IMG/VR virus record: IMGVR_UViG_3300038530_000849
Span: 1 to 25,766 of that record
Source of the DNA: a virus
Taxonomy: Duplodnaviria > Caudoviricetes
Length of the DNA: 25,766 nucleotides
Reading direction: 5' to 3' (one strand)
Each line of letters begins with the position of its first letter. Position 1 is the stretch's first letter. The position numbers were made by a program, and so were the translations under genes. The notes beneath the pieces were generated by a model that worked only from the letters and a program-made list of their open reading frames with translations, had not been told where the DNA came from and did no database searches. Shown one piece after another: positions 935 through 17,900 of the stretch.

Positions 935-1303
935 TTAGCCCCTAATTTCTTCTTTAATTTTCTTAATATCTTGTACGCTTAACATATTAGAGAAAACTTC
1001 ATCAAGATGATTACTTTCACTTAATATCTCTTCGCCCACAATATAAGCGTACATATTAGCAATCTTTTCAGCGTCGCTAAAATCGGTTGTAACTTCACCG
1101 AAGTTGCCCTGCTCATAGTCTTTTATCATTTCGATTATATCAAAAGTTTCAGCACCTAAAAACTCTTTAGCTTTATGATTACCAATAATGAAATAATCTG
1201 TATTACATAGCTCGTGGTGTAAATCACAAGCGTAAGTATCCACATAATTATTATCTAATTTATTTAATATATCTTGTCTTACTTCTTCTTTTTGATTTAT
1301 CAT
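935..1303 (-). CDS. acidic early protein (122 aa), possible Ocr-like/anti-defence protein
   Basis: About 26 D/E versus 11 K/R; DLHH..NTDYFIIG and YE..NFGEV.TD.SDAEKIANM segments look like a recurrent phage family; SD AAAGGA upstream. Confidence 0.7.
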   Translation of the reverse strand: MINQKEEVRQDILNKLDNNYVDTYACDLHHELCNTDYFIIGNHKAKEFLGAETFDIIEMIKDYEQGNFGEVTTDFSDAEKIANMYAYIVGEEILSESNHLDEVFSNMLSVQDIKKIKEEIRG

Positions 1304-1329
1304 TTTTTTATCCTTTAATTTAAATTACT

Positions 1330-1381
1330 GATCTCATCAGGTAGCCAACTAGACTACGACGCACCGCAGTGCGTTTCGATC
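1330..1381 (-). ncRNA. type II hammerhead self-cleaving ribozyme
   Basis: Minus strand: GATC GAAAC GCAC-TGCG-GTGC GTC^ GTAGTC-TAGTT-GGCTAC CTGATGA GATC. Full catalytic core (CUGAUGA, GAAA, GUC), stem III ACGCAC/GTGCGT, stem I GTAGTC/GGCTAC, open stem II GATC/GATC. Confidence 0.95.
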
Positions 1382-1642
1382 TTATTTATATTCCTCAAAG
1401 TTAACTGAAGTAGAAACAAAGAATTTGTATTTGTTTTCAAGATACTTCCAGTCAACCTTATGATAATTATCAACTGTAATTGGACAGTATTCTTCGTACC
1501 AATCGCCCTCTTGTAAGGCTAGATGATTTGTCAGCAGCCACTCAGTTGATACTACTTTATTATCGTACTTTATTTCATTTAAGTTATCTTCGTATATACC
1601 TTGTAACTCTTCTTCAGCGAATTTTGTTAATTTATTTATCAT
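1382..1642 (-). CDS. small acidic hypothetical early protein (86 aa)
   Basis: ORF with junction module AAATTAAAATCAGGAAGGATAAAAAAATG; its stop codon abuts the hammerhead. Confidence 0.8.
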   Translation of the reverse strand: MINKLTKFAEEELQGIYEDNLNEIKYDNKVVSTEWLLTNHLALQEGDWYEEYCPITVDNYHKVDWKYLENKYKFFVSTSVNFEEYK

Positions 1643-2033: not shown

Positions 2034-2061
2034 ATTATCCATAATTTGACATGTTCGTCAA
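2034..2061 (-). promoter_or_regulatory. putative sigma70-type promoter for the leftward early operon, with overlapping inverted repeat
   Basis: TTGACG (2061-2056) - 16 bp - GATAAT (2039-2034), A-rich UP region; TTGAC-ATGTTC-GTCAA inverted repeat at 2046-2061. Confidence 0.5.
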
Positions 2062-2899: not shown

Positions 2900-2949
2900 A
2901 CCCTTAATAGGGGCTAGTGTTAGACCCTATGTATAGTAATAGTATAGTA

Positions 2950-3108
2950 ATGAATGATAGAAATAAAAGTTGCGAAGAATGTTGTTGCGTAGACTCGGAA
3001 AGTAATCCAATTCTTGAAGAGTGGGACAAGCAAGGGTTTCTTGTAAAAAGTATATGCATGATGTGTTATGCAGAAAATCTAGATGAAAATAAGAATACCA
3101 ACGATTGA
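2950..3108 (+). CDS. small Cys-rich protein (CEEC...CMMC)
   Basis: Two CxxC pairs; ATG at 2950 preferred over the track's 2917 start; overlaps TerL start. Confidence 0.55.
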   Translation: MNDRNKSCEECCCVDSESNPILEEWDKQGFLVKSICMMCYAENLDENKNTND

Positions 3109-4531
3109 GCCAAGAGATTATCAAATACCTTTTTTAAAAGCGTTTGATAGTGGCATACAATATTCAGTTATATCGTGGCATAGACGAGCAGGTAAAGATG
3201 TTACGTCATTCAATGCTATGATCAAGCGTGCTATACAAACACCAGGTAACTATTACTACCTATTCCCTACTAGAGCATGGGCCCAGCGTGCTTTATGGGA
3301 TAACATATGTGAATGGGCTGGTGGTAAAAAACTAATCGATTTGTTATGTCCACCGGAAATAGTACGCAGAAAAAACAATTCAGACTTTTTTCTTGACTTA
3401 ATCAATGGCAGTAGAATAAAGATAGATGGAACAGATAATCTAAATTTCGTTGGACAAGGAGGATCAGGATATGTTTTATCAGAGTTTTCTTTACACAAAG
3501 AAGAAGTATCCGGATTCCTTGCACCTATATTAACTGAAGGTAGTGCATTTGTAATATTCAATGGCACACTACGAGGAAAATCAAATCATTTATGGAGATT
3601 ATATGAAAATAATAAAGAAAATAAAAACTGGTTTACACAATGGTATCAACTGGGGGATACAAAAACTGCGTATTGGGTTGGTAGCGGTATGGATATTAAT
3701 CCAGAGCTTGCTAGTAAAATTAGTCCTTATGATGGAAAAGCTTATAAAAATATTCAAGAAGATGTTGACTCGGGGATAATATCCTATGCAATGGCTCGTC
3801 AAGAATATTTGAATGAAGCCATTTCTCAAGTAGAAAATAGCTACTATGGTCACGAGCTTGAGGTTTTAAAAAATGAGGAGAGGTATGGAAATCTCGATAT
3901 TGGAAATGGGAGTGTATTTACTTTTTGGGATTTGGGTACTTCTGATGCTACAGCCATAATATTTGCACAAGTTATAGATGGTAAACCTATTATAATAGAT
4001 TATCACGAGTCTAGTGGTAAAAAAATTGAAGACTATGCGATAGTAGTAAACAGTAAAAACTACAAGTATGGTGGCCACTTTGCACCGCATGATGTATCCA
4101 AGCGTATGTTGTTTGGTGATCTAGTATCTACAGCAAAAGAAGTAGGTATAGATTTTAGACGTGTACCAAAAACTAGCTCGGTATTACAAGATATAGAAAT
4201 ATGTAGACGTAAAATGCGAGAAGTATATATTCATACTAGGTGTGAAGATTTATTAGAACATCTTGAGCATTATAGAGAAGGACCAAGTGGTCGACCTGTA
4301 CATGATAAACACTCTCATGCAGCTGATGCATTTAGAACAATGATCATGGGAATACATTTAAATCTTGTACACCCTTATTTATCAACAGGCAAACAAATTA
4401 AATTACCAAACACAGTAGGGAAGGCAGAAGAGTATGTCGATTGGGAATCCAATACAGCTAGCGAAAAACCGCTATGGAAAAGATTTCGAGAGTCTAATGG
4501 ACTTTTATCTGACTCATGGAGTGGTGTATAG
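3083..4531 (+). CDS. terL: terminase large subunit
   Basis: PRDYQ adenine-binding motif, WHRRAGKD Walker A variant, VLSE Walker B, FNGT motif III, FWDLGTSD RNase H-like nuclease and HDKHSHAADAFR C-terminal motif. Confidence 0.95.
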   Translation: MKIRIPTIEPRDYQIPFLKAFDSGIQYSVISWHRRAGKDVTSFNAMIKRAIQTPGNYYYLFPTRAWAQRALWDNICEWAGGKKLIDLLCPPEIVRRKNNSDFFLDLINGSRIKIDGTDNLNFVGQGGSGYVLSEFSLHKEEVSGFLAPILTEGSAFVIFNGTLRGKSNHLWRLYENNKENKNWFTQWYQLGDTKTAYWVGSGMDINPELASKISPYDGKAYKNIQEDVDSGIISYAMARQEYLNEAISQVENSYYGHELEVLKNEERYGNLDIGNGSVFTFWDLGTSDATAIIFAQVIDGKPIIIDYHESSGKKIEDYAIVVNSKNYKYGGHFAPHDVSKRMLFGDLVSTAKEVGIDFRRVPKTSSVLQDIEICRRKMREVYIHTRCEDLLEHLEHYREGPSGRPVHDKHSHAADAFRTMIMGIHLNLVHPYLSTGKQIKLPNTVGKAEEYVDWESNTASEKPLWKRFRESNGLLSDSWSGV

Positions 4532-4775: not shown

Positions 4776-5184
4776 TACACCTAGACCACCAAAGATCAAA
4801 ACACCACCACCACCGGTTGAAGACATATCAACAGCATATCAATCTCCAACTATGCGTCAAGAAATAGCCAGACGACAACGACGTGGTGCATTTGTAACTC
4901 GTGGACAAACATTAGGAGCAAGTGGAGAAGTTCTTGGTGCAGGACCAACAGAATTAGCACCAATTGCACAAGCTACAGGTACAGATACACCTGAAAAAGA
5001 ATTATCTAAAGAAGAATTTTTAAAACAAAATCCTAGTAAAGTAAAAGTATTTGGTGGACCTGGATACTCATATGCAATGAACAAAAGAAGAGAGGATGAA
5101 AATAGAAGATATGCTTCTTATCTTAAAAAATTAAGAAAAGATACAGAATCTCGTATGGGTGCAACTAGAGGGCAAACAATATAA
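4759..5184 (+). CDS. putative small virion/assembly protein upstream of portal
   Basis: MGGGS..PPPP N-terminus and basic RRQRRG segment typical of the pre-portal gene of podoviruses; TAATG coupling to portal. Confidence 0.6.
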   Translation: MGGGSSTPRPPKIKTPPPPVEDISTAYQSPTMRQEIARRQRRGAFVTRGQTLGASGEVLGAGPTELAPIAQATGTDTPEKELSKEEFLKQNPSKVKVFGGPGYSYAMNKRREDENRRYASYLKKLRKDTESRMGATRGQTI

Positions 5185-6845
5185 TGGATGCTAAATCTTT
5201 AATTAAAATGTACAATCGTGAAAAAACGAGTACAGAACGAAGTAACTTTAATGATATATACGAAACCTGTGCAGAGTTTTGCAATCCAAAAGCAGATGAT
5301 ATACAAAGTAAAAAAACAGCAGGTGAACGTACAGACTCACAACGAGTAACAGATATTGGTATAAAAGCAAGACGTATGTTTACTGCTGGTATGATGTCCC
5401 ATTTATTTCCACAAGGACAAAATTGGATACGAGTAGTTACTGTTAATCGTGAACTTATGTCTAACGATAATGTTATTCGTGCATTATCTTCTGTATCTAA
5501 AAAATTTATTAATGCTATAGAAAACTCAAACTTTTATGAAGAGATGGGACAATGTATTGATCATTGTGGATACATTGGAACAACTACATTATATTGTGAG
5601 TCAGATAAGAAAAACTTTATTAACTGGCGATCACATTATATTAATCAATTTTATTTTTGTGAAAACTATCAAGGCCAAGTAGATACTGTTATTCGTGAGT
5701 TTAAACTTACTGCTAGACAAGCATTACAACAGTTTGGTGAAGATTGTCCAGAACGTATACGACAAGAAGCAGAAAATATGTCTACGCAAACTAAAGAGCA
5801 TGAGTTTATTCATGTAGTTATGCCTAGAAATGGATATACTCCTAATACAGATAAAAAAGAAAATAAAAAAGTTGCATCAATTTATGTTAGTTTAACTACA
5901 AAAGAAATAGTAATGGAATCAGGATTTGATGAAATGCCTTACTCTGTGGGTCGTTTCTACAAAACAAACTATGAAAAGTATGGTAGAAGTCCTGCATCAG
6001 AAGTAATTAATACACTTCCTATGATAAATAGAATGGAAGTAGCTCGTATTCGTGGTGCTGAAAGAGTATCTAACCCCCCGTGGTTAGCTCCTAATGATGG
6101 TAGTGTTAGACGTATATCTAACGATCAAGGGTCTATTATATATTATAACGCAGGTAACCCACTATCTAAACCTGAACAACTACGACCAATGGACAATATT
6201 GTTGTTAATGATGCAATGATACAAAAGAAAGAACAAGAAGTAATGGATGCTTTTTACATTCCATTGTTTAATCCATTACATAATAAACAAAACATGACAG
6301 CATTTGAATCACAAGAAAGACTTAACTTATCATTACAATTTCTTACACCTGCGGTCAATAGATTAAATAAATATTTTGTTAAGCCAGCATTAGAAAGAGC
6401 ATTTGGTATTATGTTACGAGCTGGTGCATTTAGAGAACTTGAAATAGAAGAGTTATCAGAAGCTAGTCTTGATTTTGATTTAGTAGGTAAAGCATCTATA
6501 GCATCAAGGCAAATAGAATTATTTGGCACAATGACTGCTGTTCAACAAATGGCACAGATAGCACAACTTAAACCTGAAATATTTGATAATTTAAATCCTG
6601 ATAAAACAGCACGATTTATTCAAGAAGTAAATATGATGCCAATAGATTTACAATTATCAGAAGATGAAGTACAAGAAATAAGAGATGAAAGAGCAGAAGC
6701 TGCTGCTGCACAACAACAAGCAATGCAAGCACAAGCATTAAGTGACGCATATGCTAAAACAAGACAAGCACCCGAACAAGGTAGTGGTGCAGAGTTTGTT
6801 CAAGAATTAGTTAATCAAGAAGTAGAAGCAGCAGAAGAGGGTTAA
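5184..6845 (+). CDS. portal (head-tail connector, BPP-1 Bbp21/T7 gp8 type)
   Basis: 553 aa; ESGFDEMPY, YGRSPA, NPPWL, MTAFE motifs and Q/A-rich C-terminal helix; synteny. Confidence 0.92.
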   Translation: MDAKSLIKMYNREKTSTERSNFNDIYETCAEFCNPKADDIQSKKTAGERTDSQRVTDIGIKARRMFTAGMMSHLFPQGQNWIRVVTVNRELMSNDNVIRALSSVSKKFINAIENSNFYEEMGQCIDHCGYIGTTTLYCESDKKNFINWRSHYINQFYFCENYQGQVDTVIREFKLTARQALQQFGEDCPERIRQEAENMSTQTKEHEFIHVVMPRNGYTPNTDKKENKKVASIYVSLTTKEIVMESGFDEMPYSVGRFYKTNYEKYGRSPASEVINTLPMINRMEVARIRGAERVSNPPWLAPNDGSVRRISNDQGSIIYYNAGNPLSKPEQLRPMDNIVVNDAMIQKKEQEVMDAFYIPLFNPLHNKQNMTAFESQERLNLSLQFLTPAVNRLNKYFVKPALERAFGIMLRAGAFRELEIEELSEASLDFDLVGKASIASRQIELFGTMTAVQQMAQIAQLKPEIFDNLNPDKTARFIQEVNMMPIDLQLSEDEVQEIRDERAEAAAAQQQAMQAQALSDAYAKTRQAPEQGSGAEFVQELVNQEVEAAEEG

Positions 6846-14945: not shown

Positions 14946-17900
14946 ATGATAGACCTTAAAACATTTACAGAAACTGCTATACAAAATAATCCGGATGCAA
15001 CAGCAGAAGATATAACAAATGCTTATAATTTATATGAAAAAGATTATAACAATGAGCAAGCAGCATATATGCAAAATCCTCCTAATCCAAAAACATCAAC
15101 ATTAACTGATATTGAAGCTTTTAATAAAACATATATAGAAAATAAAATAGGAGTAAAATTTTCTAATGATGAGCTACCAGCATACATGGGTACATATATG
15201 GGTATGCCTAATATTAGTAATGAAGAATTTTTAAATGAAATAGTTAATCTTGAATTAAATAAAGCACCTGTAAAACCTATATCTAATTTAGAAAAAGGAT
15301 TAACTGATTTTGGTGGTGAAGCTATTAATCCTGAAACATTTAGTTTGTTTAATTTACCAAGTCAAATGGATATTTTAGATTTAAATAAAGATAATATTAT
15401 AGATTATAAAGATAGACAAGCATATTATGATCAAGATTTAAGTCTTAAACAAAAAGTAATATATAATGTTGCTGATTTTATACATGATAGAACTTTAACA
15501 TATGGTTATCCTGTTACTAAATTTATAGATCAAGTACCTAGTTGGTATAGAGCTATTAAATTACAACTTGATTCAGAAAATACACCTATACCTTTACTTG
15601 ATGATATAGTTAAAGTTACTGGTGGTTTTTCTCTTTATGAAACTCAACAATTAGAAAAATATAGAGAAGAATTAAATGCAAGTGGTAATAAAAATTTTGC
15701 AGCTGCTATGGGTATAACAAAAGGAGCTACTGATACTTTATCATTTTTAAACGCATTAAGACTTGTACCAGGTGCTGGTTTTACTTATGGAACATTAGCA
15801 AAAGTACCAACTACATTAAAAAAAGGTAGTGCTGTTAAATATACTTTTGGAAACGTGCTTCGAGCATTAACTAATGGACAAAGAATAGCATTAGTATCTG
15901 CATGGACAACAGAAGGTGTAACACAAGAAGAACGATTAGATATATGGAAAATAACTACTTTATATGCTAGTACACCAGCATTATCAGGTAATGTTCCTAG
16001 TAATGTAGGTGCTAAAGGTGTTGATTTTATTCTTAATAGTTTAATATCTACTTTTAAAGAAGATGGAATATTAGATATTATAAAAAATGAAAGTTTATCA
16101 GGTGTTGAAAAATTATGGGCAGCAGGTGAACTTGTTGGTTATGATGCAGTATTTTCTGCAATGACACAAAGTTATGGAAAAACTGCTAATGCTCTTCGTG
16201 CTGATTTTCAAGCTATGGATCAATATACTAATCGGTTATCAATAGAGGCTCAACGACCAGGAACGTCTGGATTATTTAAAGATGATGGCAGTCCTCTTCG
16301 TAAATTAAGTTATGAACAATTAATAAAGTCAGGATTTTATGGAACTGATTTATCATCAGGTAGAGGAGGTGTATTTATTTTAGATAAAATTGAAACTCAA
16401 GGACTTAAAGAAATACAAAATACAAAAAATGAATTAGAAAAAGAATTAAAAAAAATACAAATTACTGAACAAAAAATTGTAGATGTAGGAAGAGATGAAA
16501 CTAAAGTTGATGAAGTTAAACCTACTGATGAAGTTAAACCTACTGATGAAGTTAAACCTACTGATGAAGTTAAGCCTGTTGATGAAACTAAAGTTGATGA
16601 GGTTAAAGAAACTAAAGTTGATGAAGTTAAAGAAACTAAAGTTGATGAAGTTATTCCTGAAAAAATATTAGATAATAAAGAAATTAAAAAAGCTGTACAA
16701 GAAACTATTCTTCAAGGAATAAAAGATAATGAATCACAACCTGTTATAGATCAAATAATTAGAGGAAATCAAAGAATAGAAGAATTATATACTGTATTAG
16801 ATGCACCAAAAGGAACTCAAGTAAAAACAGTAATAAATAAAATAAATAATATTAGGCAAAATAAACCAGCAGAAACTTTTACTATAAAAGAATATTACAA
16901 ACTTTTAGAAAAAACTAGTAAAGATGCTCTTGTAAAAGGAACTTCTGATATACAAAAACAATTTAATGAGTTTTCAAAATTTGCTGATAATAATTTACCA
17001 TATAAAACAGCTGATAGAATTAAAAAACAATTATCAAAACTTATTGAAAAAGGAACAACACCATTAAAATTTAATGAACAAGCTAGATCAATATTAGATA
17101 GAGCTACAGGACCTCAACAAAAAATAGAACAAGTTATACCTATAAAAGATATGTCTAAACGAGTAGATATGACTGAAGCTGAAATGTTGCGTGTTATTTT
17201 AAAAGAACAAGAAAAAGCTGCTACTGGTGCAAGAAAATCAACAGTAGATAAAATTGTAGCAAATCAAAAAATAGCACAAGATATTTTAAATAAAATGCCA
17301 GCAGCAACAAAAAGTAAAATGATTACTGCAATGAACAAAATTGCAAAAGCAAAAACTGATGCAACAAGAGAAAAATATTTAAATGAATTTACACAATATG
17401 CTAATAAAGTTGTTGATAATTTTTATAGATCAGAAGCATTAAGTAATTTAAATTTTGCTAAATCAGAAGCTCAAAGATTACTTAAAAGTAAAAGAGTTAA
17501 TGATGAAATAAAAAATGAAATAGAAAAAGTTATAACAGAAATAGATAGTGGTAAATTAAAAGATAGTATTGATGATCTTATTAATAAAGCAACGATACCG
17601 GAACAAATAGAGTTACTAGCTAATTTAAAATTATATACTGAATTAATTCCTGTAAAACCACAGTCAGAACTTTCTACAAAAGAATTAAACCTACAAGCTG
17701 AAATGTTAAATAGCTATGTAAGTAAAATGAGTAGAATTATTGATGATATTACAAATAATAGAAAGTCAAAAATACAAGAACAAGTAATTAAAGAAAAATC
17801 TATTATTAATCAACGCAAAGAAACTAATGAGTTTTTTGAAAAAGTAAAAGATAAATTTGATAAATTTGTAAAAACACCTTTAGTTGGATATTCAATACCT

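Follow-up and report, generated by a model that had tools for sequence, protein, structure and literature searches.

What a self-cleaving RNA does between two genes of a phage has been an open question since 2011 (PMC6765202, in the part of that article available), and the locus described here raises it again. The window, by which we mean the whole 25,766-nt stretch that was analyzed, is a linear virus record (IMGVR_UViG_3300038530_000849) that is 72% complete and carries terminase-like, head-tail adaptor, capsid and tail genes on its plus strand. A group of seven small ORFs is read leftward, on the minus strand, from about position 2035, and a 78-bp gap (1304-1381) that separates the second from the third is where an earlier note on this DNA had recognized an intact type II hammerhead ribozyme. 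We found the motif where that note had placed it and with the sequence it had given, with the core and all of the stems complete. It does stand out as a GC-rich island in an AT-rich region (54% GC, compared with 27% for positions 1-2400 of the window) and begins at the base after the upstream stop codon; from its end to the Shine-Dalgarno-like sequence we count 14 nt, where the note had about 15. The features to which we will refer are as follows.

2034..2061, minus strand: best sigma-70-like promoter candidate (10/12), at the head of the small-gene cluster; not above chance (18 sites found, 21.4 expected)
1382..1642, minus strand: upstream ORF, encoding an acidic product of 86 aa without a family match (ORF list, family searches)
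1382..1384, minus strand: UAA stop of the upstream ORF; its final A (1382) stands at the position beside stem II where an A is conserved (sequence and class survey)
1330..1381, minus strand: type II hammerhead motif, short-loop subclass, no pseudoknot (sequence, descriptor, siblings)
1381-1378, minus strand: stem II, 3' strand (sequence)
1377-1374, minus strand: GAAA core strand (sequence)
1359..1374, minus strand: stem-loop III, 6 bp (1374-1369 with 1364-1359), UNCG-type tetraloop 1368-1365 (fold and one two-sided sibling change)
1358, minus strand: C17 (hammerhead numbering)
between 1358 and 1357, minus strand: predicted cut, following C17 in the GUC triplet (position from hammerhead numbering)
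1341..1357, minus strand: stem-loop I, 6 bp (1357-1352 with 1346-1341), 5-nt loop 1351-1347, U1.7 at 1351 (fold and two one-sided pair-keeping changes)
1334..1340, minus strand: catalytic core strand CUGAUGA (sequence)
1333-1330, minus strand: stem II, 5' strand; stem II has 4 bp and is open (sequence)
1328..1332, minus strand: AUCAG, the anti-core tail; it overlaps the 5' strand of stem II, and its predicted partner is 1340-1336 (energies, covariation in relatives)
1304..1327, minus strand: linker rich in A and U that contains a Shine-Dalgarno-like AAGGA at 1315-1311; sibling ribozymes share its first part (sequence, siblings)
935..1303, minus strand: downstream ORF, 122 aa, acidic (26 D+E, 11 K+R), all-helical model, phrog_10208 family (family search, structure model)

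The motif (1381-1330) satisfies both the sequence and the descriptor for a type II hammerhead. The CUGANGA and GAAA strands and the UH triplet, with the U16.1-A15.1 and G10.1-C11.1 pairs, are all present; a loop caps each of stems I and III and stem II is open, which is the type II topology. A descriptor that combines core and stems matched the window exactly once. 2000 dinucleotide shuffles produced 20 loose matches, in no case with the 6-, 6- and 4-bp stems, whose strict lengths were taken from the window element itself. A pattern based on sequence alone matched the window twice, with 0.14 matches expected, and just one of the two has stems; the stemless match is due to tandem short repeats (PTDEVK, ETKVDEVK) at 16470-16690 on the plus strand, inside a 1732-aa ORF. 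In a survey with a sequence-only pattern, all three stems were present in 125 of 140 distinct matches. The type II descriptor detected no further hammerheads in the window or in L001, a longer identical copy that goes on with cell-wall hydrolase and nuclease-like genes. We conclude that the window element is a real hammerhead of type II topology, lying outside the pseudoknot family RF02276 as that family is modelled. On its own it is ordinary, and its self-cleavage, as predicted from the motif, is likely.

A comparison with the Rfam Hammerhead_II family (RF02276), which the earlier note had proposed, gave a divided result. A search of 131 nt returned this family at 18.9 bits (E 0.077), but the cut-off is 37 bits; there was no match to the element at the gathering level, and a search of 3.2 kb gave none at E 10. 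In the RF02276 consensus, loop I forms a pseudoknot of at least 4 bp with the bases directly after stem II, and this is absent from the window element. The best 4-base match between its 5-nt loop I and the tail begins 3 nt into the tail and contains G-U pairs; in the siblings it begins 6 nt in. Two pattern scans of viral contigs provided 192 distinct cores that passed the descriptor, with only exact duplicates removed, and these form two classes. The long class (n = 127) has a long stem-loop I, a stem II of 2-3 bp in 115 cases and a loop-tail pseudoknot of at least 4 bp in 126, and the short class (n = 65) has a short stem-loop I and a pseudoknot in only 13. Three other features of the short class were not imposed by the patterns: a 4-bp stem II (61/65), a U at the seventh base after the cut, position 1.7 (62/65), and an A immediately 5' of stem II (63/65). 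The window element falls in this class and has U at 1.7 as well as A beside stem II. Of a larger set of 308 short-class representatives, 303 have this A; two patterns imposed U1.7 on this set, which is therefore no evidence on that base. Among loci chosen for the comparison, the Rfam cut-off was reached by 0/10 of the short class and 8/10 of the long. The poor score of the window element is thus a property of its class, and standard annotation misses the short subclass for the same reason. With one pattern alone we estimate that about 1000 stored viral stretches match.

It is likely that U1.7 and the A beside stem II form a U-A contact. The available part of PMC11875169 describes a Hoogsteen contact between U1.7 and a loop II A in sTRSV, Schistosoma and minimal hammerheads, and reports that U7 was not essential in the constructs of that study. 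Like these, the window element has a U, unpaired, at the seventh base 3' of the cut, and its 4-bp stem II has an A immediately 5' of the 3' strand. It differs in that stem II is open and the A is supplied by the 5' flank, where it belongs to the stop codon, and not by a GNRA loop. The A beside stem II partly reflects stop codons and is common in the long class too (90/127 at -4). For this reason, and because Fig. S5 of PMC3088659 (seen in part) scores a U...A motif by type, we do not claim the subclass as new. The short-class elements in L153, L113 and L102 have A and not U at 1.7, and L153 has a U beside stem II, a possible swapped contact.

Several precedents bear on what such an element could do. 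In the available part of PMC3088659, Perreault et al. (2011) describe natural type II hammerheads clustered between prophage genes and propose that these process long transcripts; for the clustered phage hammerheads cleavage is documented both in vitro and in E. coli, and a link to ardA is noted. The open stem II, full core, sense-strand position between phage genes and proposed processing are shared with the window element. It differs from these and from RF02276 in having no pseudoknot between loop I and the 3' tail, a 5-nt loop, a 4-bp stem II and a score of 18.9 against 37 bits; moreover, its tail pairs with the core and it is present in a single copy in the window. Dense arrays, with at least five type II hammerheads per 3-4 kb and one at each gene junction, occur in L114-L116, L095, L097, L102, L103 and L146. 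The same source describes HHphage of haloviruses HF1/HF2, an early-region hammerhead that closely precedes a start codon and near whose cleavage site a transcript 5' end was mapped. The window element is similar in position; HHphage is a structural variant before the first ORF of an archaeal virus, whereas the window element has a consensus core and is inside a gene cluster. Three type II hammerheads cleave in Desulfovibrio cells (PMC8782182, as far as available). Those of Desulfovibrio vulgaris are likewise of type II and near phage-like genes, with cleavage demonstrated in cells and in vitro; for the window element it is predicted. The accessible text of PMC6765202 suggests processing by intergenic phage hammerheads without defining its purpose, and that of PMC10085705 and PMC13725137 contains background on hammerheads only.

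The genomic context fits such processing. Among 176 surveyed elements with enough flanking sequence, 149 lie in the sense orientation within 60 nt of the end of an upstream ORF and within 80 nt of a downstream Shine-Dalgarno sequence and start, compared with 5 in the antisense orientation, and the median distance to the start codon is 22 nt. In 195 of 301 short-class representatives the stop codon ends at -1 to +2 of stem II; the antisense control gave 17. Processing of a polycistronic phage mRNA is therefore likely, as judged from context, and this is the same as the published hypothesis (PMC3088659, seen in part). We infer an early operon from the gene layout, since promoter-like sites are no more frequent than chance and no terminator-like site was found in the small-gene region. 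The capsid protein comes no closer than 37.5% identity to those of HTVC010P-type pelagiphages, too distant for naming a host; a search for similar DNA in cultured phages gave no match across most of the query.

The association of the ribozyme with any one gene is loose. Eleven close sibling loci have five unrelated upstream genes and two unrelated downstream genes. Among 80 loci with genes for relatives of the downstream protein, just 2 have a hammerhead, both of them 100% identical copies; an obligate link between ribozyme and downstream gene is rejected by the other 78. In the related phages L003 (terminase 85% identical) and L004 there is no hammerhead in about 8 kb and about 4.5 kb, respectively, of matching region. 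The ribozyme is, by these comparisons, a movable junction module that is dispensable in related phages. Other repeats are found in both: in L004 an intergenic element of some 70 nt that contains an inverted repeat is found twice (2900-2995 and 3733-3805), preceding two genes where the hammerhead is absent, and L003 has a different repeated element (4781-4858 and 5607-5682). The earlier note had looked to covariation in related phages for support. Across five distinct sibling rows all 79 of 79 cells are paired and the core is invariant, and the only changes are one two-sided change in stem III and two one-sided changes in stem I. Thus every change keeps pairing, but the result is not significant alone (106/500 shuffles).

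The minimum-energy fold predicted for the window element is not the catalytic one. Instead, CUGAU of the core (1340-1336) pairs with AUCAG (1332-1328) in an anti-core fold of -19.6 kcal/mol by nearest-neighbor energies, compared with -19.0 for the catalytic fold, with pairing probabilities of 0.81 and 0.13. A RUCAG tail follows the core in 22 of 65 short-class elements and in 1 of 127 of the long class, and its first base varies with core position 7. Where the tail is free of stem II, elements with U7 have AUCAG in 13 cases and GUCAG in 1, and those with C7 have GUCAG in 18 and AUCAG in 1 (P = 3e-7, or 5e-4 when clustered at 55%); with a purine at N7 the tail occurs in 1/84. A scan in which N7 and the tail base were both left open, and which shares some contigs with the earlier sets, gave 115 distinct matches, of which the 105 with all stems were kept and the other 10 dropped. 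The two bases are paired in 104 of the 105 (60 U-A, 42 C-G and 2 U-G, with 1 U-U), and for 46 clustered representatives the covariation has P = 5e-11, clustering being no phylogenetic correction. These data establish that in relatives the tail covaries with core position 7. The 5-bp tail characterizes a subset, 72 of the 308 representatives in a set enriched for GAUC stems, and a test of core:tail duplex energy over the whole class was not significant (P = 0.41). In prokaryote genomes 8/8 were paired, too few for significance (P = 0.14), and avoidance of tail extension into stem I was likewise not significant (12/46, with 16.8 expected).

In the window the tail overlaps stem II. Compared with five aligned siblings, which have a free AUCAG tail, the window element is 3 nt shorter, and its overlapping form keeps all five pairs. 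In the overlapping form an AG follows stem II in 38/71 elements where N7 can pair, in 16/35 where it cannot and in 25/202 otherwise. The case for covariation therefore rests on the free-tail form, since in the overlapping form AG is also frequent where N7 cannot pair. It is likely, to judge from the predicted folds and the covariation, that the tail drives product release and damps cleavage. The covarying core-pairing tail is what is new here, the kind of ribozyme, its setting and the idea of processing having been published; no report of such a tail was found in a literature that was mainly open-access. The earlier note had named neither this tail, nor the likely U-A contact, nor the lack of a pseudoknot.

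With moderate confidence, we favor a reading in which this short-loop type II motif cuts its own transcript, the polycistronic mRNA of the small genes, just past a stop codon, whereupon the AUCAG tail folds onto the core, releasing the products. The small-gene cluster would be transcribed leftward from a host-type promoter. Stem II would close last, and U1.7 of loop I would dock on the stop-codon A beside it, permitting a fast fold in the absence of a pseudoknot. Cleavage after C1358 would leave an upstream RNA that ends in hairpin III and a cyclic phosphate, and a downstream RNA that begins with a 5'-OH and hairpin I. Each hairpin would stay on its own product, so that only the 4-bp stem II and the U-A contact would join the two. 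Capture of CUGAU by the tail would then displace stem II, disfavor re-ligation and add a second 5' hairpin, and this hairpin does appear at the new 5' end in the predicted fold of the downstream product. In the uncleaved RNA this pairing would make the reaction slower. The two RNAs would afterwards decay and be translated independently. In the pseudoknot class, by contrast, stem II is shorter and the downstream product alone would contain the tertiary pairing; release in the short class would be provided by the tail. A 5'-OH end protects against RNase E but not against RNase J1. The stabilization of the downstream RNA that the earlier note envisaged may occur, depending on the nucleases of the host. 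The idea that cleavage unmasks the ribosome-binding site is unsupported, as the calculated cost of opening this site falls by 0.3-1.7 kcal/mol at 37 C but increases at 10 C, the change at 20 C being below 1.

The main rival, which we consider unlikely, takes the anti-core fold at face value: the tail would keep the ribozyme mostly off, and the fraction cleaved would be set by transcription kinetics or by a ribosome terminating at the abutting stop codon, where it would sit over the strand of stem II and over the tertiary A. The two folds are indeed within 0.6-1.4 kcal/mol of one another at 37 C, and the frequency with which the stop abuts stem II (195/301) would suit this mechanism. Hammerhead cores with a purine at N7 are slower, and the near absence of tails from these (1/84) looks as if slower cores cannot afford a competitor. 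However, the stop abuts stem II in the pseudoknot class as well, which has no tail, and abutting is no more common with the tail (66/95) than overall. In addition, a 5-bp hairpin should exchange rapidly, and would therefore slow cleavage and not gate it.

There are two further readings. According to one, which seems to us quite improbable, this is a plain constitutive processing site whose AUCAG is incidental, a GAUC stem followed by AG after the loss of 3 nt from a sibling tail. The window is indeed 3 nt shorter than the five aligned siblings, and AG follows GAUC stems in 21/51 elements with U at N7 and in 7/13 with C. Yet those siblings bear a free AUCAG tail of the covarying type, the shorter form retains the five pairs, and after stems that do not end in UC the AG is found in just 25/202. 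The other, to which we give very little credence, treats the ribozyme as an inactive or near-neutral passenger in a mobile junction cassette, consisting of ribozyme and ribosome-binding linker, that is spread by recombination and whose cleavage barely matters or whose RNA is misfolded. Its absence from the matching regions of L003 and L004, its shuffling among genes and the anti-core fold as predicted minimum all agree with such a history. Against it, the core is invariant among siblings with all changes preserving pairs, and the GC-rich island has been kept in a region of 27% GC. Processing followed by tail-driven release accordingly remains the reading that we prefer.

The earlier note had likened the element to the RNase III sites of T7 early mRNA, and the identity of the downstream gene bears on that analogy. 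Its product belongs to a family common in phages (488 viral stretches) and was modelled with a pLDDT of 95.6. In a structural comparison with 48,161 chains, T7 Ocr (1s7z) ranked fourth, with 93 of 106 residues aligned, an rmsd of 3.9 and a Z of 4.3, a level the tool calls common. Foldseek gave nothing at E 0.001 in the PDB, with 1s7z absent among the matches listed, and beyond the PDB it returned uncharacterized viral proteins only; an ESM Atlas look-up named no family. The ORF did not match the Ocr family PF08684 at E 1, and a profile-profile comparison with Ocr gave a probability of 0.6% (E 0.098). An identification as Ocr thus has no sequence or profile support, and the modelled likeness to T7 Ocr is weak. 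Sigma-70-like sites within 200 nt upstream of genes of the downstream family were found at 11/79 loci, compared with 4/71 and 0/78 in controls. In 5/79 of these loci, with differing upstream sequences, the phrog_10208-like gene is closely preceded by a conserved hairpin, roughly 50 nt long and interrupted by an internal loop.

L007:675-725; L008, L009, L014 and L619 (before the gene); L606:877: the hairpin just described (folds)

Rfam gave no match for the four of these hairpins that were scanned, and nothing relevant for nine downstream-gene loci. In outline the hairpin resembles the long one ahead of T7 gene 0.3, which we take to be an RNase III site, although the T7 record has no such annotation. 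By this analogy it is possibly an RNase III-type site. The comparison with T7 survives as a weak lead in the hairpin; kinship with Ocr is not established. Both systems would involve a cut between early genes. RNase III processing requires the host enzyme and leaves 5'-phosphate and 3'-OH ends, while the window motif is by prediction an RNA-only device.

A broader proposal can be offered tentatively, and as a whole it is more doubtful than the mechanism above. Short-loop phage type II hammerheads may form a large subclass, below the annotation cut-off, in which a covarying, strand-displacing RUCAG tail captures the core and makes cleavage one-way or couples it to ribosome termination at the stop codon from which the tertiary A comes; here the element would precede an Ocr-like DNA mimic, in the slot that is elsewhere taken by an RNase III-type hairpin. 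If this were true, ribozymes and processing sites for host enzymes would be interchangeable modules. The covarying tail permits a two-base compensatory test that would distinguish tuned or one-way switches from plain cutters.

Some minor features of the small-gene region were also recorded. Similar stretches occur on opposite strands at 933-880 (minus) and 2908-2950 (plus), each having an inverted repeat built on GGGGCTA and then repeats of TATAG; the former folds into a 9-bp hairpin with no U tract, and neither fold exceeds shuffles. Three small ORFs on the minus strand (390-647, 665-865 and 1382-1642) encode strongly acidic products with 17 D+E each and 6-9 K+R, as is often the case for host-takeover and DNA-mimic proteins. 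Finally, minus-strand junctions at 1669, 889, 671, 233 and 16, and none on the plus strand, share a near-identical linker of 13-14 nt that ends in ATCAG or ATCAA just before the Shine-Dalgarno sequence and is a possible recombination cassette or protein-binding site.
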